This document shows positions 17,642 through 27,112 of a DNA stretch of 32,000 nt, piece by piece. The notes beneath the pieces are model-generated. The model was not told the DNA's origin, ran no database searches, and saw only the letters and a list, made by a program, of their open reading frames with translations. The number at the start of each line of letters is the position of its first letter. Position 1 is the stretch's first letter. Source of the stretch: Edaphobacter aggregans. GTDB taxonomy: Bacteria; Acidobacteriota; Terriglobia; Terriglobales; Acidobacteriaceae. A program made the translations under genes and the position numbers. Where the stretch lies: contig NZ_RSDW01000001.1 in assembly GCF_003945235.1 (NCBI RefSeq), positions 900,001 through 932,000 on the forward strand. Reading direction: 5' to 3'.

Positions 17642-19360
17642 ATGCACACCTTTCCGATTTTTGGTTTTCTTTCTCTGCTAAGTGCCTGCGCGGTTCTCCT
17701 GATAGCCTTTTTTAGAGAACAACGCACTGCCCGTGAGTTCGCAGCACAGTTGACACACGCGCGCGAACAGCAGCATCACCACAAAATGCAGCTCACCGAG
17801 CGCTCGCAACTCGATACGCTCAAGGACGAGTTCATCTCCACCGTCTCGCACGAGCTCCGCACCCCCCTGACCAGTATCCGGGGAGCCCTCGGCCTTCTCT
17901 CCTCCGGCGTCATCGGAGACGTGGACCCCAAAGCACTGAACCTCCTCCGCATTGCAGTCACCAATACCGACCGACTCATCCGCCTCATCAATGACATCCT
18001 CGATCTGGAGCGCATGGAATCCGGCCGCGCCCCGCTCCAGATACGCCGCTGCTCCCTGCAAGATCTCTGTGAGCAGGCCATCGAGACCATGACACCCATG
18101 GCCGACGCCGGCACCGTCTATCTCGAACTCGTCGGCTCCACGGGCCTCGGCGCCGCATCCTCAGAGACCCTCTTCTTCGACGGCGACGCCGACCGCATCC
18201 TCCAGGTCCTGACCAACCTCCTCTCCAACGCCATCAAGTTCTCTCCCACAGCCTCCACCGTCCGCATCCATACCGACGCCACTGCCGACTCCATCATGCT
18301 CAAGGTTGTCGATGAAGGCCGCGGCATCCCCTCAGACAAGCTCGACAGCATCTTCGACCGTTTCCAGCAGGTAGAACCCTCCGACGCCCGCCAGAAAGGC
18401 GGCACCGGCCTCGGCCTTGCAATCTGCCGCAGCATCGTCCAGCAACACGGCGGCTCCATCTGGGCTCAGCGCAACATCGGCGTCGGCACCACACTCTACG
18501 TCATGCTGCCCCGCACGACCCGCGCCTCCGACCTGCCTTCGGTCTCTACGCCTGCCGCTCTTCCTGCCTCTCTTGCCCATCGTGGCGAAGGCGCCATCCT
18601 GGTCTGCGATGACGACGCCGGTATCCGAACCGTGGTCTCCGAACACCTCACACGCCAGGGCTACACCGTCATCGAAGCCGTCTCCGGCGACGAAGCCCTC
18701 GTCCTTGCTGCCGAGCACCACGTCGAAGCCATCCTCCTCGACCTCTACATGCCCGGCCTTAGCGGCTGGGAGACCCTCCAGCGGCTCCGCAACCAGCCGG
18801 CAACGGCCAACATTCCCGTCGTGGTCCTGAGCGTCCTCTCCTCCACCCTCCGTCCCCAGCTCACAGGCGACGCTCAGGGATGGGTCCAGAAACCCTTCAA
18901 CGAAAATCTCCTCTTCGCCGAACTAGGCCGCGTCCTCCATCAAGGAGAAGGCCCCGCCTACGTCCTTCTCGTCGAAGACGACGAAGACCTGGCCAGTGTC
19001 CTCACCGCCAGCTTCGAAGATGCTGCGGTCCACATCGACCACGCCTCCACCCGCCAGCAGGCCATCCGGCACTGCATCAACCGCCGCCCCGACCTGCTTA
19101 TCCTTGACCTCACCTTGCCCGACGGCGACGGCTTCTCGCTGGTCGAATGGCTCCGCCAACAGCCTGCCCTACGAACCCTCCCCCTGGTCGTCTACTCCGG
19201 CCGCGAGGTCTCCGACGTCGAGATGGCCAAACTCCGCCTCGGCCCCACCGAGTTCCTCACCAAGGCTAAGGTCCAGCCGCAGGAGGTCGAAGAATTGGTC
19301 CTTTCCATGGTCCAGCGCATCCGCTCCCGGTTCTCCGATCTCGCCACTACTGCCCAATAA
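17642..19360 (+). CDS. hybrid histidine kinase: one TM segment, HisKA, HATPase_c, then two receiver domains
   Basis: The H-box is STVSHELRTPLTSIRG. The N and G boxes are LLSNAIKFS and GGTGLGLAICRSIV. REC1 reads ILVCDDD...LLDLYMPGLSG and REC2 reads LLVEDDED...ILDLTLPDGDG. Only about 50 aa, including one hydrophobic segment, precede HisKA. Confidence 0.9.
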   Translation: MHTFPIFGFLSLLSACAVLLIAFFREQRTAREFAAQLTHAREQQHHHKMQLTERSQLDTLKDEFISTVSHELRTPLTSIRGALGLLSSGVIGDVDPKALNLLRIAVTNTDRLIRLINDILDLERMESGRAPLQIRRCSLQDLCEQAIETMTPMADAGTVYLELVGSTGLGAASSETLFFDGDADRILQVLTNLLSNAIKFSPTASTVRIHTDATADSIMLKVVDEGRGIPSDKLDSIFDRFQQVEPSDARQKGGTGLGLAICRSIVQQHGGSIWAQRNIGVGTTLYVMLPRTTRASDLPSVSTPAALPASLAHRGEGAILVCDDDAGIRTVVSEHLTRQGYTVIEAVSGDEALVLAAEHHVEAILLDLYMPGLSGWETLQRLRNQPATANIPVVVLSVLSSTLRPQLTGDAQGWVQKPFNENLLFAELGRVLHQGEGPAYVLLVEDDEDLASVLTASFEDAAVHIDHASTRQQAIRHCINRRPDLLILDLTLPDGDGFSLVEWLRQQPALRTLPLVVYSGREVSDVEMAKLRLGPTEFLTKAKVQPQEVEELVLSMVQRIRSRFSDLATTAQ

Positions 19361-19422
19361 GCAGGAAGAAACTTCCCAGTTACCTCCAATAACTTCCATC
19401 GCATGAGAGAATAAGTTCGCTC

Positions 19423-19839
19423 ATGCGACGCATTCTGATCATTGATGACGAGGACGACATCCGCGAAGTAGCGGCCCTATCTCTCGAAGCTACAGCCGGC
19501 TGGGAGATACTCACCGCCAACTCCGGCGCCAAAGGCATCGACATTGCCGTCGCCGAACAGCCCGATGCCATCCTCATGGACGTCATGATGCCCGAGGTCG
19601 ATGGCCCCACCACCTTCCGCAACATGCAGCAAAACCCCGCCATCTCCAGCATTCCCGTCCTTCTACTCACCGCAAAGGTTCAGGGAGTCGATCAGCGCCG
19701 CTTTGCTGGCCTGGGCGTCGCCGCCGTCCTCTTCAAGCCCTTCGACCCGCTCACCCTCGCCGACCAGATCTCCGAGGTTCTTGGCTGGAGCAAAAACAGC
19801 CACTCAGAGCAACCTGTACCTTCCGAACCAGCCGTCTGA
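19423..19839 (+). CDS. single-domain (CheY-like) response regulator
   Basis: It contains ILIIDDEDD...ILMDVMMPEVDG...LLLTAK...FKPF. There is no output domain. Confidence 0.9.
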   Translation: MRRILIIDDEDDIREVAALSLEATAGWEILTANSGAKGIDIAVAEQPDAILMDVMMPEVDGPTTFRNMQQNPAISSIPVLLLTAKVQGVDQRRFAGLGVAAVLFKPFDPLTLADQISEVLGWSKNSHSEQPVPSEPAV

Positions 19840-19880
19840 TCCAATCAGCTCCACTCATCTCAGCCAAGGCCCCTCCCCCT

Positions 19881-20240
19881 ATGTCCGAGAACCAACCCAG
19901 AAAACAGACCAATAGCCCGTCCGAAGATTTCAGCGAAGGGATCGACGATCTCCTCGCAGACCTTTGGCAACGTCATCTCCCCACCCTTCGGGAACGCCTC
20001 GATCTCCTCGCCCGCACCGCTGCCGAAGCCACAACAGGCACTCTCAACGAAATCACCCGCGCCGAAGGCCAGTCAATCGCACACAAACTCTCCGGCAACC
20101 TTGGCATGTTCGGCCACCACAAGGCTGGAGACCTCGCCAGTCAGATCGAGCACATCTTCAAGGCCCCCACACCCGAGACGCTCCCTCTCCTTGCCGGCCT
20201 CACCCGAAATCTGCGCGAAACCCTCGCCGCCAACCTCTGA
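19881..20240 (+). CDS. Hpt (histidine phosphotransfer) domain protein
   Basis: The 119-aa helical protein has the motif SIAHKLSGNLGMFG, matching the Hpt pattern HxxKGxxxxxG. The start codon is uncertain because there is no clear SD. Confidence 0.7.
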   Translation: MSENQPRKQTNSPSEDFSEGIDDLLADLWQRHLPTLRERLDLLARTAAEATTGTLNEITRAEGQSIAHKLSGNLGMFGHHKAGDLASQIEHIFKAPTPETLPLLAGLTRNLRETLAANL

Positions 20241-20246
20241 CGGCTC

Positions 20247-22154
20247 TCACTTAGCCTGCCGCACCGCCCACCCAGCCAGATCGATCGCCGCGTCAAACCC
20301 GTCATAATCCAACGGCAGCTTATTCCGCCGATCCACATATTCGTTGTAGACCCACGGATCGACCACGGCAAACACAGTCCCCTTCCCCATCTTCGAAACC
20401 GCCATCAGCACATCGCCCTTATCGGTCAAGATAGCCTTCGCCGGACCCGAAACCGTAATCGTAGAAATCTCCTTCAAATAAGCCTTATGAGGATGTTCAA
20501 ACATGCCCGTTCCCGCAGGAACCATCACCGTCGCCTGCGACCACGTATTGTTCTCCACCGTATTGCGAAGCACCGGATTGAAGTGAATCCCGAACCGCTC
20601 ACTCATCGTGTTGAAGTGCTCGAACTCTGAGTTCGTTACATCGTTCTGCATCAGGATCAGCACGCCGCCCGCCTTCACCCAGGCCTCAATCGCGTCCCCA
20701 CTGGCCTTATCCATGTAATGCGGATTTGGATTTTTCGCCGGAATATCTGGCGAAGCCAGCACAAAAATCTGCGCCTTCTTCAAATCAGCCGCTATGGGCG
20801 CAGTCGTCTCTGTAGCCAGCTTCACGCCATACCGCTGAAACGCCCGCCCATAAAACGCGAAGCCCGAATTCGCATCATCATCCCACTTGTAATGAAACAG
20901 CTCCGGCTGCCCCGCAGCATTCTTCCGCGTCTGCGAGTTGAACCAAGCATCTACCAGCACCGTCTTTCCCTGCCCCAACGCCTCAGTCGAAGCCTGCGCC
21001 ATCTCCGACCCCGCCAGCATAAAAGCTCCGATGCCCTTCGCATCGTTCGCAATCGTCTTCTCGCCAACATAGTAGTCAAACGTCCCCGAACGATAAGGCG
21101 TCCCACCCAGCCCACCAACCTTCACCGTCCCATTCAGCACCATCAAGCCATCAGGCCCAGTCGAAACAAACGCCTTCTGAATCCCCTCCCATCCGCGCCG
21201 AGCATTTGCCTCATAGCTCTGCGGCAGATACCCCATCCGCACCCCCTTCGCCAGCGCATACACAAACATCGAGCTAGCCGAACCCTCCGTATAATTCCCC
21301 GGCTTCCCGCCCTTATCCATCACCTGCCACCACAAACCCGTCTTCTTATCCTGATAAGCCACCGCCGCCGTCGCCGTCCTATTCAACGCAGCCACCAACT
21401 CTGCCCGCTTCGGATGATCCTTCGGAAACCAATCCAACACATCCACCAGCGCCATGGCATACCACCCCATCGCCCGCGCCCAAACCTCCGGCGACAACCC
21501 CGTCGTCTTATCCGCCCACGGCATCTGCTTCGACTCATCCCACCCATGCAGCAGCAAACCCGTCTTCGGATCGCGCATCTTCGTATCCATCAACAGCAGC
21601 TGCTTCGCAATATCGTCAAAATCCCCCGGCTCCTGAAACGTAGCCGCATACGCCGCGCGAAAAGGCTCCGCCATATAAGCCCCATCCAGCCACATCTGGT
21701 TCGGATAGATCTGCTTATGCCAGTACCCACCACTCGCCGTCCTCGGCTGCGCAGCAAGCTGCTCATGCAAAAACTTCGCCGCCTTGTAGTACTTCGGCTG
21801 TTGCGTCACCCGATACACCAGCAACACCGCTCGGCCCATTTCAATGTCGTCCAGCGTATGCCCGTCAGCCTTATAGCCCTTAATCGTTCCATCCTCGGCG
21901 ACATACTTATCCACCGCTGCCTTGATGTAGCGAAAGTCATCACCATTCGCGGTAGCGTGCCACTGAGCTGCCATCCCATCCAGAAGCACACCCTCCTCAT
22001 ACGCCCACTCGCCCGGATGATTCTCAGTCGTCACAACCCCCGCAGGCCACTCCTTGATCACTGACTCCGCCATCTTCGCCGAACTTGCATCCTGAGCCCA
22101 CAAACCCTGCGCCACCGCACAACCCATCACAACCGAAGCCGCAAACAACCGCAT
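20247..22154 (-). CDS. GH105/GH88-family unsaturated (rhamno)galacturonyl/glucuronyl hydrolase with an extra C-terminal DUF4350-like domain of about 240 aa
   Basis: The signal peptide is MRLFAASVVMGCAVAQGLWA-Q. The N-terminal roughly 390 aa (...YEEGVLLDGM...MWLDGAYMAEPF...LLHGWDE...WARAMGWYAMALVD...EGSASSMFVYALAKG...) fits YteR/UGL-type (alpha/alpha)6 hydrolases. The C-terminal part (...IFVLASPD...AIEAWVKAGGVLILM...) resembles DUF4350 or a GATase1-like fold. That second call is tentative. Confidence 0.8.
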   Translation of the reverse strand: MRLFAASVVMGCAVAQGLWAQDASSAKMAESVIKEWPAGVVTTENHPGEWAYEEGVLLDGMAAQWHATANGDDFRYIKAAVDKYVAEDGTIKGYKADGHTLDDIEMGRAVLLVYRVTQQPKYYKAAKFLHEQLAAQPRTASGGYWHKQIYPNQMWLDGAYMAEPFRAAYAATFQEPGDFDDIAKQLLLMDTKMRDPKTGLLLHGWDESKQMPWADKTTGLSPEVWARAMGWYAMALVDVLDWFPKDHPKRAELVAALNRTATAAVAYQDKKTGLWWQVMDKGGKPGNYTEGSASSMFVYALAKGVRMGYLPQSYEANARRGWEGIQKAFVSTGPDGLMVLNGTVKVGGLGGTPYRSGTFDYYVGEKTIANDAKGIGAFMLAGSEMAQASTEALGQGKTVLVDAWFNSQTRKNAAGQPELFHYKWDDDANSGFAFYGRAFQRYGVKLATETTAPIAADLKKAQIFVLASPDIPAKNPNPHYMDKASGDAIEAWVKAGGVLILMQNDVTNSEFEHFNTMSERFGIHFNPVLRNTVENNTWSQATVMVPAGTGMFEHPHKAYLKEISTITVSGPAKAILTDKGDVLMAVSKMGKGTVFAVVDPWVYNEYVDRRNKLPLDYDGFDAAIDLAGWAVRQAK

Positions 22155-22276: not shown

Positions 22277-25093
22277 TCAATCGCAAGCCAAAGCCGTCCA
22301 CACCCCAGCCGCCGTCCCACTCGCCCCACTGATACTCAGGTCCACAAAGTTTCCCGCCGCCACCGCCACACTCCCCGTAGCCGTACACATCCCACCCGAA
22401 GCCGCCGAGCAGCCCAACCCCGTATCCGCCATCGCTCCCGGCGTCCCCTGCCGCAGCATCACGCTAATAGCATTCGTCTGCTGCGAAAACACCACCAGCT
22501 TCGTGGCTACACACCCCGCCGGAACCCACGTAAGCTCCGCCGTCCCCTCCGTCAACGCCGACCCCGTATTGTTCACTGAGTAGTAGACCGAATTAAACGA
22601 AACCGCGTGGTACATCGAAGCAAACGGAATCCCGCTCGTCCCCCCACCTCCGCCACCACCCGTCCCATTTGCTCCAGGAGCACCCTGCGGAATCGTAAAA
22701 TTCAGCACCGCAGCACTCGCCGTCCCACTGTTCGTCACCGAAGCCTGCGTCCCCGCCGCCCCCGTCGTCACCGTCCCGACACTCACCGCAGCAGCAGCCC
22801 CCGCCGGCCCCGTAGCCCCTGCACTCCCCGCCTGAGCCAGGACCCCCCAAACCGCAGGCGAAACATCCGGCTCCGACTCCAGACTCGTCCCCAACGCCAG
22901 ATAAGTCGTTCCCCCAAACACCACCGCATCATTAGCCACATACCCCACACTCGCCACCCACGCACCCTTATAGCTCATCCCCACCGTCCCAGCCGGCCCC
23001 TGAGGCCCCATCGGCCCAGCCGCACCCGCGGCCCCCGAAGCGCCTGTCTGCGCCAGCACCCCCCAGTACGCCGGACTCAAATCCGGCTCTCTCCCCACAT
23101 TCCCCACCAACGCAACATAGCTCGTCCCGCCATACCCAACCGCAGCGCCAACCGCGTAGGTCTGCCCAGCCACCCACGTCCCCATAAAACTCACCGGAGG
23201 CCCTTGCGGCCCAGTCGCGCCCGTGGCACCAGTAGCCCCCACCGGCCCCTGAGGCCCCGCAGCACCCGCCGGCCCAGCAGGCCCTTGAGGCCCCTGGGCC
23301 GCCAGCACCGTCCAATACGCCGGACTCAGCCCCGGCGTATTCCCCACATTCCCCGACCCCAACGAAACATACGTCGACCCACCATAGCTCACCGCATCAT
23401 GCAGCCCATAGTTCGTCGCCGAATCATAGTTCCCCGTGTAGTTCGCCACCGCAGGCCCCTGAGGCCCAGTAGCTCCAGTCGCACCCGTAGCCCCCGTAGC
23501 ACCCTGCGGCCCCGTCACCCCCTGCAAACCCTGCGGCCCGGCCAATCCCTGAGGCCCAGCCGGCCCTGTCGCACCCGCCGCCGCAAACATAGCCCACTGC
23601 CCCGGACTCTGATCCGGCGTATTCCCATGATTCCCATCCACCAGCGAAACATACCCTGCACCGCCATACATCACGCCATCGGCCAGAGCATAGTTCGTTG
23701 TCGAAGAGTACGCCCCCTTAAACGACAGCCCAACTGGCCCCGCCACACCCTGAGGCCCCATCGGCCCCTGAAGCCCCTGCGGCCCCGTCGCCCCAGTCAA
23801 CCCCTGAGCCCCCGCCTGCCCCGGAACGCCCTGCACCCCTTGCGGCCCCTGCTCCCCCGGAGGTCCCACCGCCCCCTGCAACCCCTGAGGCCCCTGTGCC
23901 CCCGCCACGCCCTTTAGCCCCTGAGGCCCAACCGGTCCCTGCGCCGTCAGCACACCCCACCACGCCGGACTCGCATCCGGAGTATTCCCGTGATTCCCCG
24001 CGCTCAACGACGCATAACTAGCCCCCTGCCAAAGCACTACATCCCCCAGCGCATAGTTCGTCACCGACGAATACACCCCCTGATACACCAACCCCGGACT
24101 CCCCGACGCGCCCGCAGCCCCAGCAGCACCCGTCGCCCCCGTAGCCCCAACCGGCCCCTGAGGCCCCGTCAACCCCGGAGGCCCTTGCGGCCCCGTTGCT
24201 CCCTGCGCCCCCGTAGTCCCCACCCCTGCCTGCGCCACCAACCCCCACTGCAGCGGATTAAGCCCCGGCGTATTCCCCAAATTCCCAGCCGTCAGCGAGA
24301 TATAGCTCGACCCCTGAAACACCACCATATCGTTCACCGCGTAATTCGCCGTCGAGTCATACGTTCCCCGATACCCCAGCCCCGAGCCATTCGCCGCAGG
24401 CCCAGCCGGTCCCATCGGCCCCGCAACCCCCGTATCACCCTTCGCCCCCTGAACCCCCTGAATCCCCTGCGGCCCCGCCGGTCCCGCCACACCCTGTGGC
24501 CCTTGAGGCCCCGTGGCGCCCGTAGCCCCAGCCGTAGCCAGCACCACATCCAACTCAGCCGCATGGCCCGTCAGGTCATTCTCCTTGCTGTCGAATTGCA
24601 CCACTGCCGTAGCCGCCGTCAGCGCCACCCCAAAATTGGTCGCCGGAGTCGTAATCCACCCCTGCACCAACGACGTGACATCCACCGTCACATACGCCCC
24701 AGCCTGGCCCACCGAAAACACCTGTGAAGCACTCCCCAGGGAAGGCAGCGTTGAATACGTCACGCTATACTCCCCCCAAGCTCCCCCCAGCGGCTGAACA
24801 CTCACCAGTCCCGCCGTATCCATCCGGTTGCAAAACAGCCGCAGCACCGCCCTCGACACCTGCGAAGCCGTAGTCCCTGGCGGCAGTGTACCCAAGTCAA
24901 ACTGCAGCAGAGCAGTATACCCACCACCTACATTCAAATTCGAAATCGTCCCACTATTCACCGCTGGCAGAGCCTGATTCACATGGGCATCCGCCACCAG
25001 CGTCGCCTCGACGGCACGAGCCTGCCCAACCGTCGCCACCAGCAACGCCGCCACCCCTAACCACGGCGGCAATCCCCCCTTGACCAGCCCCAT
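22277..25093 (-). CDS. secreted modular collagen-like protein: DNRLRE-like domain, then 7 Gly-X-Y tracts alternating with 6 aromatic CBM5/12-like modules, then a C-terminal globular domain
   Basis: The ORF is open to 25177. I prefer the ATG at 25093, which gives the signal peptide MGLVKGGLPPWLGVAALLVATVGQARA. The N-domain is ADAHVNQ...LLQFDL...AVLRLF...VTVDVTSLVQGW...VQFDSKEN. By hand count there are 91 Gly-X-Y triplets in tracts of 15, 15, 24, 14, 11, 8 and 4. Confidence 0.85.
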   Translation of the reverse strand: MGLVKGGLPPWLGVAALLVATVGQARAVEATLVADAHVNQALPAVNSGTISNLNVGGGYTALLQFDLGTLPPGTTASQVSRAVLRLFCNRMDTAGLVSVQPLGGAWGEYSVTYSTLPSLGSASQVFSVGQAGAYVTVDVTSLVQGWITTPATNFGVALTAATAVVQFDSKENDLTGHAAELDVVLATAGATGATGPQGPQGVAGPAGPQGIQGVQGAKGDTGVAGPMGPAGPAANGSGLGYRGTYDSTANYAVNDMVVFQGSSYISLTAGNLGNTPGLNPLQWGLVAQAGVGTTGAQGATGPQGPPGLTGPQGPVGATGATGAAGAAGASGSPGLVYQGVYSSVTNYALGDVVLWQGASYASLSAGNHGNTPDASPAWWGVLTAQGPVGPQGLKGVAGAQGPQGLQGAVGPPGEQGPQGVQGVPGQAGAQGLTGATGPQGLQGPMGPQGVAGPVGLSFKGAYSSTTNYALADGVMYGGAGYVSLVDGNHGNTPDQSPGQWAMFAAAGATGPAGPQGLAGPQGLQGVTGPQGATGATGATGATGPQGPAVANYTGNYDSATNYGLHDAVSYGGSTYVSLGSGNVGNTPGLSPAYWTVLAAQGPQGPAGPAGAAGPQGPVGATGATGATGPQGPPVSFMGTWVAGQTYAVGAAVGYGGTSYVALVGNVGREPDLSPAYWGVLAQTGASGAAGAAGPMGPQGPAGTVGMSYKGAWVASVGYVANDAVVFGGTTYLALGTSLESEPDVSPAVWGVLAQAGSAGATGPAGAAAAVSVGTVTTGAAGTQASVTNSGTASAAVLNFTIPQGAPGANGTGGGGGGGTSGIPFASMYHAVSFNSVYYSVNNTGSALTEGTAELTWVPAGCVATKLVVFSQQTNAISVMLRQGTPGAMADTGLGCSAASGGMCTATGSVAVAAGNFVDLSISGASGTAAGVWTALACD
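22793..24529 (-). repeat. intragenic tandem array of diverged units of about 190-360 nt (collagen tract plus aromatic module)
   Basis: Six copies of the protein module Y/F.G.Y/W.....Y...D.V...G..Y..L......P...P..W..L....G are separated by GXY tracts. DNA similarity between copies is visible, for example in the recurring ...ccggactc..atccgg.gtattccc.tgattcc... on the + strand. Confidence 0.8.
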
Positions 25094-25465
25094 CAAACGT
25101 CCCAAGACCTTCCCCAAGCAACTCAACGTTACAGAGACACAAACCAAAAGACCCGCACCCTCCGCCTGCTTGCGCAAACAGAGGGCCGGTCACTTCCACT
25201 CAACGATCGAAACTCTACAGTGCACGTTGCGCTGGCCATGGACTGACCATGCAATGTTCATTTTGGGAACAGAAACTGGGAGCCTTCCCGTTCTAGAACA
25301 AAGGCTCACAAAACACAACCATATTACACGTCGCCCTCTACAACTTCCGTGTCATTACCCCCGACATGATCCCTCCCCCTGTTTAGGACTTAACCTACCC
25401 ATCGCGATACCATTACAATCCGCATCCCATAGAAAGCAATCGACACTAAAGACGAGGACACCCCC

Positions 25466-27112
25466 ATGAGCGCCACCCCAACCAACCAGCCCGGCCAACT
25501 CCCCTTCCCCGAAACCCTCGTCGACATCCCACGCCTCATCACCGCCTTCTACTCCCTCCACCCCGACGCCGCCGTCCCCGCCCAGCGCGTTTCCTTCGGC
25601 ACCTCCGGCCACCGCGGCTCCTCCTTTGACGCCTCCTTCAACGACGACCACATCGCCGCCATCACCCAGGCCATCGTCGAATACCGCGCCACCCAGCACA
25701 CCCTCGGCCCCCTCTTCCTCGCCAAAGACACCCACGCTCTCTCCGAGCCCGCCTTCACCACCGCACTCGAGGTCCTCGCCGCCAACGACATCGAGACCAT
25801 CATCGACGAACACCTCGGCTACACCCCCACCCCCGCCCTCTCCCACGCCATCCTCACGCGCAACCAAAACTCCAAACTCCACCGAGCCGACGGCATCGTC
25901 ATCACCCCCTCCCACAACCCTCCCGAAGACGGCGGCTTCAAATACAACCCACCCACCGGCGGCCCCGCCGACACCTCCGCTACCAAGTGGATCGAAAACC
26001 GCGCCAACGAACTCATCGCCGCCGGCCTCAAAGGCGTCAAGCGCATCTCTTACTTCCGCGCCCTCTCCGCCGACAAGACCTACCGTCACGACTACATCAC
26101 CGCCTACGTCGACGACCTCGCAAACGTCATCGACTTCGACGTCCTCAAAGGCACCGACCTCAAGTTAGCCGTCGATCCACTCGGAGGAGCCGGAGTCCAC
26201 TACTGGCCTCGTATCGCCGAAAGGTACAAGCTCCCCATAGAAATCCTCAACCGCCACGTCGATCCCACCTTCCGCTTCATGACCTGCGACTGGGACGGCC
26301 GCATCCGCATGGACTGCTCCAGCCCCTACGCCATGGCCAGCATGATCGCCAACAAGAACAAATACGACGTAGCCTTCGCCGCCGACACCGACCACGACCG
26401 CCACGGCATCGTCACCAGCACCACCGGCCTCCTCAACCCCAACCACTATCTCGCCGTCTGCATCCAGTACCTCTTCACACACAGACCGGAATGGAAGAGC
26501 AGTGTCGGCATCGGCAAAACCCTCGTCTCCTCCAGCATCATCGACCGCGTGGCCAAAGGCCTCAACCGCCCCCTACTCGAAGTCCCAGTAGGCTTCAAGT
26601 GGTTCGTCGACGGCCTCCTCGACGGCAGTCTCGGCTTCGTGGGCGAAGAATCCGCCGGAGCTACCTTTCTCCGCCGCAACGGCCAAGTCTGGACCACCGA
26701 CAAGGACGGCCTCATCCCCGGCCTCCTCGCCGCCGAGATGACCGCCCGCACCAGCAAAGACCCCGGTGACATCTACCGCGAACTCACCGCAAAATACGGC
26801 GCCCCCACCTACCAGCGCATCGACGCAGCAGCCACCAAGGAGCAGAAGGCCAAACTAGCCAAACTCTCCCCATCACAAGTCACCGCAAAAGAGCTCGCCG
26901 GAGAGCCCATCACCGCCATCCTCACCGAAGCACCCGGCAACCACGCCCCCATCGGCGGCCTCAAGGTCACAACCGAGAACGGCTGGTTCGCCGCCCGTCC
27001 CTCCGGTACCGAAGACGTCTACAAGATCTACGCCGAATCCTTCAAGGGCGCCACCCACCTCAAGCAAATCCAAACGGAGGCCCAGCACCTGGTCACCGCC
27101 GCCATCGCCTGA
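25466..27112 (+). CDS. pgm: phosphoglucomutase (alpha-D-glucose phosphate-specific)
   Basis: The 548-aa protein contains FGTSGHRG, the active-site loop TPSHNPPEDGGFKYN, DTDHDRHG and GEESAGA. Its length and motifs match E. coli-type Pgm. Confidence 0.92.
   Translation: MSATPTNQPGQLPFPETLVDIPRLITAFYSLHPDAAVPAQRVSFGTSGHRGSSFDASFNDDHIAAITQAIVEYRATQHTLGPLFLAKDTHALSEPAFTTALEVLAANDIETIIDEHLGYTPTPALSHAILTRNQNSKLHRADGIVITPSHNPPEDGGFKYNPPTGGPADTSATKWIENRANELIAAGLKGVKRISYFRALSADKTYRHDYITAYVDDLANVIDFDVLKGTDLKLAVDPLGGAGVHYWPRIAERYKLPIEILNRHVDPTFRFMTCDWDGRIRMDCSSPYAMASMIANKNKYDVAFAADTDHDRHGIVTSTTGLLNPNHYLAVCIQYLFTHRPEWKSSVGIGKTLVSSSIIDRVAKGLNRPLLEVPVGFKWFVDGLLDGSLGFVGEESAGATFLRRNGQVWTTDKDGLIPGLLAAEMTARTSKDPGDIYRELTAKYGAPTYQRIDAAATKEQKAKLAKLSPSQVTAKELAGEPITAILTEAPGNHAPIGGLKVTTENGWFAARPSGTEDVYKIYAESFKGATHLKQIQTEAQHLVTAAIA

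Follow-up and report, generated by a model that had tools for sequence, protein, structure and literature searches.

A lineage-wide collagen-like fiber gene of Acidobacteriaceae with the rod-and-module design of phage tail fibers

The 32,000-nucleotide stretch of Edaphobacter aggregans DNA analyzed here (contig NZ_RSDW01000001.1, positions 900,001 to 932,000; hereafter the window) encodes on its minus strand a large, putatively exported protein in which seven collagen-like Gly-X-Y tracts alternate with six small modules of predicted CBM5/12 fold, between an N-terminal DNRLRE/CBM96 head and a C-terminal tip modeled as a jelly roll. Genomic comparison indicates that this fiber gene is cellular, lineage-wide, and vertically kept at a fixed chromosomal site in Acidobacteriaceae, and its product is a cellular variant of the collagen-containing tail-fiber/BclA design, not a new kind of system. 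Our favored model, which we consider reasonably probable without being confident of it, is a Sec-exported homotrimeric segmented fiber made from tail-fiber parts and having a role for the cell; any specific ligand we rate lower than this.

The Acidobacteriaceae rank with the most abundant bacteria of soil and with the least tractable ones, and little has been described of the proteins that make up their surface and matrix. A conserved, exported collagen fiber of approximately 100 nm, encoded at a fixed chromosomal site, would be a specific candidate for a structure of adhesion or of the matrix in this family, for which Tunturiibacter isolates and Tunturi phages already exist for genetic work.

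Architecture of the fiber protein

The features of the gene are listed below; residues are those of the full open reading frame (ORF) unless stated otherwise, and model confidences are from AlphaFold2 (AF2).

22277..25177, minus strand: ORF of 966 codons with a TTG start
25013..25093, minus strand: Sec-type signal peptide, residues 1-27 of the 938-amino-acid (aa) protein, MGLVKGGLPPWLGVAALLVATVGQARA, with predicted cleavage before VEATL
24530..25012, minus strand: head, predicted DNRLRE/CBM96-fold beta-sandwich (NCBIfam NF033679, Pfam PF24517)
24395..24529, minus strand: Gly-X-Y tract 1, 15 triplets (residues 217-261)
24221..24394, minus strand: CBM5/12-fold module 1 (residues 262-319; Pfam CBM_5_12 8.2e-4, phrog_5073 tail fiber 1.1e-8)
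24086..24220, minus strand: Gly-X-Y tract 2, 15 triplets (residues 320-364)
23939..24085, minus strand: CBM5/12-fold module 2 (residues 365-413), the modeled one, AF2 pLDDT 97.2
23723..23938, minus strand: Gly-X-Y tract 3, 24 triplets (residues 414-485)
23576..23722, minus strand: CBM5/12-fold module 3 (residues 486-534), with Pfam and PHROG matches
23450..23575, minus strand: Gly-X-Y tract 4, 14 triplets (residues 535-576)
23294..23449, minus strand: CBM5/12-fold module 4 (residues 577-628), with Pfam and PHROG matches
23195..23293, minus strand: Gly-X-Y tract 5, 11 triplets (residues 629-661)
23045..23194, minus strand: CBM5/12-fold module 5 (residues 662-711), with Pfam and PHROG matches
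22973..23044, minus strand: Gly-X-Y tract 6, 8 triplets (residues 712-735)
22829..22972, minus strand: CBM5/12-fold module 6 (residues 736-783), with Pfam and PHROG matches
22793..22828, minus strand: Gly-X-Y tract 7, 4 triplets (residues 784-795)
22685..22792, minus strand: 36-aa beta motif, AAVSVGTVTTGAAGTQASVTNSGTASAAVLNFTIPQ (phrog_21765 1.2e-8; phrog_4120 minor tail 2.7e-7)
22640..22684, minus strand: Gly-rich linker, GAPGANGTGGGGGGG (residues 832-846), AF2 pLDDT <50
22280..22639, minus strand: tip, predicted C1q/TNF-like jelly roll with four invariant Cys (AF2 pLDDT 91-98, Foldseek)

Much of this layout had been proposed in an original prediction made from the DNA letters alone, and re-reading the sequence confirmed its 966-codon ORF with a preferred ATG at 25093 (938 codons), its seven uninterrupted tracts, with identical lengths and positions, and its six modules of about 50 aa alternating with them. 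The Sec signal, the DNRLRE/CBM96-like N-terminal domain, the CBM5/12 resemblance of the modules, and the BclA/tail-fiber-like tip that it claimed were likewise borne out by the comparisons that follow, the three domain assignments at the level of family or fold.

Translation from the ATG yields a protein of 938 aa, and since the homologs begin at the equivalent MGLV(K/R) and have in common a signal peptide ending in AxA before VEATLVADAHVN, both this start and Sec export are supported. The signal peptide has the n-h-c layout with a terminal AxA, as read from the sequence, and is conserved among the homologs. Searched as a whole against Pfam, the protein matches Collagen (2.5e-29), CBM96 (4e-15), and CBM_5_12 (41.6 bits), and a protein search returned more than 100 homologs of 855-1612 aa with the same three families, so these features are beyond chance. 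The named homologs come from Edaphobacter, Tunturibacter, or Acidobacteriota, under the titles "DNRLRE domain-containing protein" or "Chitin-binding type-3 domain" protein.

The tracts have the long, uninterrupted, Pro-rich Gly-X-Y repeats of the collagen family (PF01391). They comprise 91 triplets, up to 24 in a row, among which GPQ (18), GAT (15), and GPA (9) are abundant, as had been predicted. Pro occupies 41% of the X positions, and Gln and Thr are the prevailing residues at Y; of the 182 X and Y residues, just 4 carry a charge. Partial NCBIfam matches to Lcl, SclB, and SclA (99-109 bits against cut-offs of 325-500) come from the Gly-X-Y repeats alone. The consecutive lengths 24, 14, and 11 are kept in 110 of 120 homologs that are 42-87% identical, and in 96 of those 110 the preceding tract has 15 or 16 triplets, while X/Y identity inside the 24-triplet tract averages 60% and falls as low as 21%. 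The underlying DNA repeats are degenerate (59-93% matches), which makes slippage an unlikely source of the tract lengths, and their conservation despite X/Y divergence may reflect selection on the geometry of the fiber. In more distant clusters, the tract lengths are not constant and entire rod-module cassettes have been duplicated, one of these proteins (P0123) repeating the series 14, 11, 21 three times. The combination of conserved rod lengths, no hydroxyproline, and few charges could interest bacterial-collagen engineers.

One module of 48-58 aa lies between each pair of successive tracts. Against Pfam CBM_5_12 (PF02839), the whole protein exceeds the cut-off of 26.2 bits, and the single modules, at 11.6-20.8 bits, each stay under it; a profile built from 62 diverse modules matches the solved structures 1ED7 (ChiA1 ChBD, E 1.2e-4) and 4ILV (E 3.4e-6). 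The AF2 model of module 2 has the small three-stranded beta fold of CBM5/12. In Foldseek, its TM-score is 0.75-0.83 to the CBM5/12 domains of ChiB, ChiC, and chitin deacetylases (COD), and its best match is the tail fiber of cyanophage A-1(L) (8kec; TM 0.86, root mean square deviation [rmsd] 1.2 Å), with an rmsd of 1.2-2.6 Å over this set; fibers of phage 7-7-1 and a contractile-injection baseplate protein of Anabaena also match. Compared with the chitinase domains ChiA1 ChBD (1ED7), ChiB (1E15), and ChiC (2D49), the modules have a similar fold (TM 0.67-0.83, rmsd 1.4-2.1 Å), but they are set between collagen rods instead of being appended to an enzyme.

The original prediction had gone on from the aromatic pattern of the modules to sugar binding, and this step is not supported. 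The exposed Trp687 of ChiA1 is essential for chitin binding, whereas the conserved aromatic residues of its ChBD form the hydrophobic core of the domain, as described in the nuclear magnetic resonance and mutagenesis literature. In a HMMER alignment to ChiA1 ChBD, the conserved aromatics of the modules pair with those conserved residues, and Trp687 falls on the N of the module sequence G-N-T-P. Over 800 modules from 120 homologs, this column holds Asn 499 times, Arg 116 times, Ser 80 times, and an aromatic residue only twice (0.2%), so that 99.8% of modules have another residue, mostly Asn, Arg, or Ser, in place of the exposed Trp of the chitinase domains; any aromatic residue in the equivalent loop occurs in only 22%. 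The "aromatic skeleton" is thus probably the core of the fold, the chitin-binding inference is weak, and classical chitin binding is a less likely function for the knobs on the shaft than a structural or weakly binding, accessory one.

The head exceeds the cut-offs of both of its families, with 81.5 bits against 34 for NCBIfam DNRLRE (7.2e-23) and 56.5 bits against 26 for Pfam CBM96 (1.7e-16 for the domain alone), and head residues 29-173 align to CBM96 profile positions 4-154. Against PDB sequences, it gave only chance-level matches to RpfB and GDF8. The founder of the CBM96 family, TM6-N4 of alginate lyase Dp0100, is a beta-sandwich that binds alginate via K10, K22, K25, K27, K31, R36, and Y159 (PMC9971899). 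The fiber head belongs to the same Pfam family, and is likened to the founder by sequence only; it sits on a fiber and not on a lyase, and the stretch corresponding to founder positions ~10-36 (DAHVNQALPAVNSGTISNLNVGGGYTA, about residues 35-61, an approximate profile-based correspondence) contains no Lys or Arg. With the basic groove residues missing, we infer polysaccharide binding from the fold families only: the folds of the fiber are carbohydrate-binding folds in which the known binding residues, judged by alignment, are not conserved.

The AF2 model of the C-terminal 171 residues (pLDDT 85.7) starts with a beta element of three strands, which a disordered Gly linker joins to a jelly roll. 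The beta element coincides with the 36-aa motif, spelled VSVGTVTTG...NFTIPQ. Foldseek matches the tip to ExsFA (5.2e-4), C1qA (1.2e-3), and BclA (3twi/3tyj, 4-9e-3) in the PDB, and also to BxpB, adiponectin, the TNF family, and the fibers of phages 7-7-1 and A-1(L). The target-normalized TM-scores of 0.38-0.66 and E values of 5e-4 to 1e-2 are modest, and the matches are consistent. BFVD gave 111 viral matches with E<=1e-3, and collagen-repeat or tail-fiber proteins of tailed phages and giant viruses make up many of these. Pfam assigned residues 796-966 to no family, with no C1q, TNF, or BclA_C membership, and a profile of the tip found nothing significant among PDB sequences (best E 1.6), so the tip is placed by fold comparison only and not by sequence family. 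Four Cys of the tip (C94, C128, C136, and C170) are invariant across 33 diverse homologs and, together with the conserved signal peptide, are consistent with an extracytoplasmic location.

The same Cys-containing tip also occurs behind other N-terminal heads (P0178, P0209, P0210, and P0266). Three of these proteins (P0178, P0210, and P0266) have signal-peptide-like N-termini, and P0178, P0209, and P0266 have a 'PCR(A/L)(V/A)DTR' motif in common, a pattern that suggests head swapping on a common fiber chassis.

Phage relatives and the chromosomal site

The shaft and tip modules of the fiber are shared with phage fibers. The whole protein matches phrog_5073, 'tail fiber protein', at 9.3e-110, and the bare modules match the tail-fiber PHROGs 5073, 26419, and 9851. 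The 36-aa motif occurs in >511 IMG/VR stretches, the 80 loci retained from these being 37-81% identical to it (most 63-80%), and in the viral ORFs that we read, it sits between the collagen tracts of long fiber ORFs; it appears from these sequences to be a ubiquitous phage tail-fiber insert. With the full protein as query, tblastn over 50,697 phage records turned up nothing beyond a 30.7% match to the head, and this search is weak because the low-complexity filter hides the collagen. Querying with the six concatenated modules retrieved 39 phage records, many annotated as tail fibers, including S-CAM3, P-SSM2, large (~285 kb) Pseudomonas phages, Geobacillus phage E3, Pelagibacter phage Mosig, and Tunturiibacter phage Tunturi_5. 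A hidden Markov model of the module, run on the 80 viral loci that the linker motif had picked out, added just one ORF with modules, so motif and module travel mostly separately in phages.

Of these phages, Tunturi_5 is of particular interest since its host, Tunturiibacter psychrotolerans X4BP1, also carries the cellular fiber gene. The jumbo phage's gp29 (PP885688.1, 28905-33314) has 1470 aa, 13 modules, and 8 Gly-X-Y tracts, which between the modules measure 9, 16, 19, 20, 28, 6, 5, and 7 triplets. The modules of host and phage have a mean identity of only ~35% (maximum 52%), which rules out recent exchange between them. The paper describing the Tunturi phages contains no discussion of a gp29-type fiber. 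In the same phage, gp28 and the four ORFs of ~280 aa that follow gp29 (gp30-gp33) look like a repeated gene series.

An exhaustive search of 1.84 billion cluster representatives with the module profile found 15,449 module proteins at E<=1e-3, of which 397 reach E<=1e-30; a single protein has as many as 44 modules. Among the best 150 clusters at 50% identity, Gly-X-Y tracts bridge at least 2 module junctions in 92, and a DNRLRE head is present in only 26. One of these relatives (P0148; 2500 aa, 12 modules, 11 tracts) is encoded beside tape-measure, Dit-like, sheath-initiator, and E217-type baseplate genes and is a metagenomic myophage tail fiber. Other rod-module relatives lie on an element with integrase and ParAB or adjoin glycosyltransferases on a 1.4-Mb contig, and for ten architectural relatives the cluster names were uninformative. 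The alternation of rods and beads, which the original prediction had put forward as an architecture not known to be described, therefore fails as a novelty, given these 92 clusters and the true phage tail fibers gp29 and P0148. We found no paper describing either collagen/CBM5/12 alternation or this fiber family in the literature searched; the alternation is undescribed rather than rare, and collagen rods punctuated by CBM5/12-fold knobs are a fiber design common to phages and cells alike. Three further proteins from the search (P0121, P0122, and P0124; 2050-4341 aa) have 31-44 tandem modules and almost no collagen, forming a second, collagen-free array architecture.

The fiber gene of the window lies outside any virion structural gene module, and where a tail fiber would have its N-terminal baseplate or virion attachment domain, it encodes the signal peptide and the DNRLRE head. 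Its nearest neighbors are as follows.

25466-27112, plus strand: pgm, divergent from the fiber gene
20247..22154, minus strand: GH88/GH105-family hydrolase with its own signal peptide (Pfam PF07470 1.4e-98), downstream and co-oriented
17642-20240, plus strand: phosphorelay cassette of hybrid histidine kinase (HK), response regulator (RR), and Hpt (Hpt-RR-HK)

These neighbors agree with the earlier reading of the window, which had named a GH105 hydrolase and pgm and had seen no phage genes around the fiber. The window also holds genes for an alginate lyase, a TonB-dependent receptor, and KDPG aldolase. Twenty window proteins belong to housekeeping and polysaccharide-utilization families, with no phage family detected among them, and none was found in the three loci with called genes; the other loci were checked for ten window-neighbor genes. 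A scan of one genome per GTDB species for relatives of the tip gave 300 confirmed stretches, of which 80 loci were retained, nearly all labeled Acidobacteriaceae or related Acidobacteriota (Edaphobacter, Granulicella, Tunturiibacter, and KBS 89/146). Consistent residence of homologs in prophages, which the original prediction had named as a refutation, was not seen in the retained loci, across which the same housekeeping neighbors flank the gene.

When the neighbor proteins of the window were searched by tblastn onto 84 loci, the conserved order was pgm (divergent, 71 of 84), the fiber gene, GH88 (50 of 84), Hpt-RR-HK (57-61 of 84), and deoxyhypusine synthase (49 of 84). The TonB receptor, alginate lyase, and aldolase were seldom kept (11, 8, and 2 loci, respectively). 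GH88 often comes immediately after the fiber gene; in the window, the gap between the two is 122 nt and has no terminator-like site, and the hydrolase is a possible operon partner. In about a third of the loci, however, GH88 is absent and the Hpt gene follows the fiber gene directly, which rules out the hydrolase as an obligatory partner and means that the link to it may be one of synteny and not of function.

Two metagenome-assembled genomes labeled Gammaproteobacteria and Rhodanobacteraceae (L070 and L073) have a locus of the Acidobacteriaceae type, with fiber, GH88, and Hpt genes; these foreign labels probably reflect misbinning of contigs rather than transfer.

A model of the fiber and its alternatives

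The C1q/TNF fold class is trimeric, and the jelly rolls of C1q, of collagen VIII/X NC1, and of BclA trimerize and nucleate the collagen helix. If the tip of the fiber behaves in the same way, then it would trimerize first, with disulfides from its four invariant Cys stabilizing the trimer, and would start the seven Gly-X-Y segments zippering up from the C-terminal toward the N-terminal end, in the manner of C1q, collagen VIII/X, and BclA. Wherever the helix is interrupted, three CBM5/12-fold modules would come together on the three-fold axis as a knob, the arrangement that such folds have inside solved phage fibers. Three DNRLRE/CBM96-fold domains would stand at the N-terminal end and the jelly-roll tip at the other, giving a rod of ~100 nm in which the helix would account for ~78 nm (91 x 3 x 0.286 nm) and the six knobs and two end domains for the rest. 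Since the signal peptide and DNRLRE head would replace the usual virion-attachment domain, such a fiber would serve the cell, and the role we favor is that of an extracellular or surface fibril, carried beyond the outer membrane, that may bind polysaccharide, either the cell's own exopolysaccharide (EPS) or capsule or an external surface. An experimental precedent that we count for this model is the short fiber of A-1(L), whose stem-CBD binds host cells when the CBD alone does not (PMC10966104).

Several points weigh against this model. No anchor or outer-membrane export signal was recognized in the protein: it has no known sorting tag and no lipobox, the signal peptide having no lipobox Cys in our reading of it beside those of the homologs. 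Neither expression nor proteomic evidence for the fiber was found in the literature searched, and the omics supplement for Granulicella WH15 has no entry matching it. The collagen is nearly uncharged and cannot be hydroxylated, which bears on the thermal stability of its predicted triple helix, and the trimer and the geometry of its knobs are features that we infer. For binding, the classical CBM5/12 Trp is absent from the modules, and the basic residues of the CBM96 founder's groove appear to be absent from the aligned N-terminal part of the head.

These last two points bear most directly on a reading that takes the fold families at face value and goes back to the original prediction of a surface adhesin or polysaccharide-capture fiber with up to 18 binding modules, in which the protein would be a chitin- or cellulose-capture adhesin with 18 CBM5/12 beads per trimer and a head that binds uronate polymers, feeding the GH88/GH105 hydrolase, TonB receptor, alginate lyase, and KDPG aldolase. 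The CBM5/12 family and fold of the modules, the CBM96 family of the head, whose founder binds alginate (PMC9971899), the position of GH88 downstream in 50 of 84 loci, and the presence of the other three genes in the window would all suit such a function, but the residues that should carry it out do not. Only 2 of 800 modules have an aromatic residue at the position of Trp687 and only 22% have one anywhere in its loop, the conserved aromatics align with those of the ChiA1 hydrophobic core, and the head has no Lys or Arg where the founder has six basic residues. The genes that would be fed are also inconstant, GH88 being missing from about a third of loci and the other three seldom kept, and the same module is a shaft element in phage fibers. 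We therefore regard such an adhesin, whether for chitin, cellulose, or uronate polymers, as unlikely. At the opposite extreme, the phrog_5073 match of the whole protein, the tail-fiber PHROG matches of modules and linker motif, and the existence of true phage fibers among the architectural relatives could mean that the gene encodes an ordinary tail fiber of a prophage, tailocin, or contractile injection system within the window. We give this hardly any credence, since a signal peptide and DNRLRE head stand in the position of virion attachment, no phage family is found among the 20 window proteins, the 80 retained loci have the gene among the same housekeeping neighbors (pgm, Hpt-RR-HK, and deoxyhypusine synthase), and the full-protein search of phage records yielded no more than the 30.7% head match.

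Between these lie two proposals in which a phage fiber has been turned to cellular ends. In one, an exapted tail fiber would serve anti-phage defense or self-recognition by binding the glycan that phages recognize, masking receptors or cross-linking kin cells or EPS. The coexistence in X4BP1 of the cellular gene with a Tunturi_5 fiber of the same rod-module design, and a tip fold typical of receptor-binding ends, make the proposal conceivable. But the modules of host and phage are only ~35% identical on average and at most 52%, the tip has no close viral sequence relative, its viral matches being mainly to the linker motif, and no defense genes adjoin the fiber gene among the 20 window proteins, so that we hold this role to be rather improbable. 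As more of a long shot than a working hypothesis, we also consider a domesticated phage fiber that has become a core-genome, Sec-exported 'molecular ruler', its knob spacing (24-14-11) under selection, which would recognize the lineage's own surface glycan or EPS and either scaffold the matrix or kin adhesion or, as a decoy, mask receptors from Tunturi_5-like phages.

Comparison with known fibers and further features of the window

The closest known systems to the cellular fiber are the collagen-containing phage tail fibers (gp29, P0148, and PHROGs 5073, 26419, and 9851), in which Gly-X-Y tracts alternate with the same ~48-aa module, and hundreds of viral fibers have the VGTVTTG...NFTIPQG motif in common with it. 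The window fiber differs from them in having a Sec signal and DNRLRE head but no virion-attachment N-domain, a family-specific Cys-containing tip, and a conserved chromosomal locus, with no phage genes seen in the window. Its collagen is almost uncharged (GPQ/GAT/GPA), whereas that of P0148 consists of GKDGxDG-type triplets.

With BclA and C1q-type collagens, the fiber has in common a collagen region followed by a C-terminal C1q/TNF-like jelly roll (by Foldseek) and Thr-rich triplets, although neither Pfam nor PDB sequences gave its tip a match to C1q or BclA_C. The collagen of BclA is one unbroken tract of hypervariable length, unlike the seven tracts of the fiber, which have folded modules between them. 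The fiber's hosts are described as non-spore-forming Gram-negative bacteria, unlike the Bacillus that has BclA (PMC11354219). Scl1/Scl2 and Lcl resemble the fiber in combining an exported collagen region with a globular domain, but the fiber lacks the LPXTG of these adhesins and has a multi-segment architecture. In both BclA and Scl, the tracts are hypervariable, in contrast to the lengths conserved among orthologs here.

Some further observations concern the surroundings of the fiber gene. The GH88/GH105 hydrolase has a C-terminal DUF4350-like region of ~250 aa (E 8.9e-5, under the Pfam cut-off), and some of the homologs downstream of other fiber genes have only ~400 aa and seemingly no DUF4350-like extension, as in a 403-aa gene of one locus (L004). 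Scans for Rfam families and tRNAs gave no match in the window. The window has an overall GC skew of -0.30 on its plus strand, and at third codon positions the skew is -0.51 to -0.78 in plus-strand genes and +0.57 to +0.78 in minus-strand genes; because the sign flips between the two, this skew is a property of the DNA strand, irrespective of which strand is coding. At syntenic loci of other Acidobacteriaceae, the absolute GC skew is mostly 0.2-0.35, with a minority near zero or of opposite sign, and an extreme replication-strand GC skew looks like a trait of the lineage.

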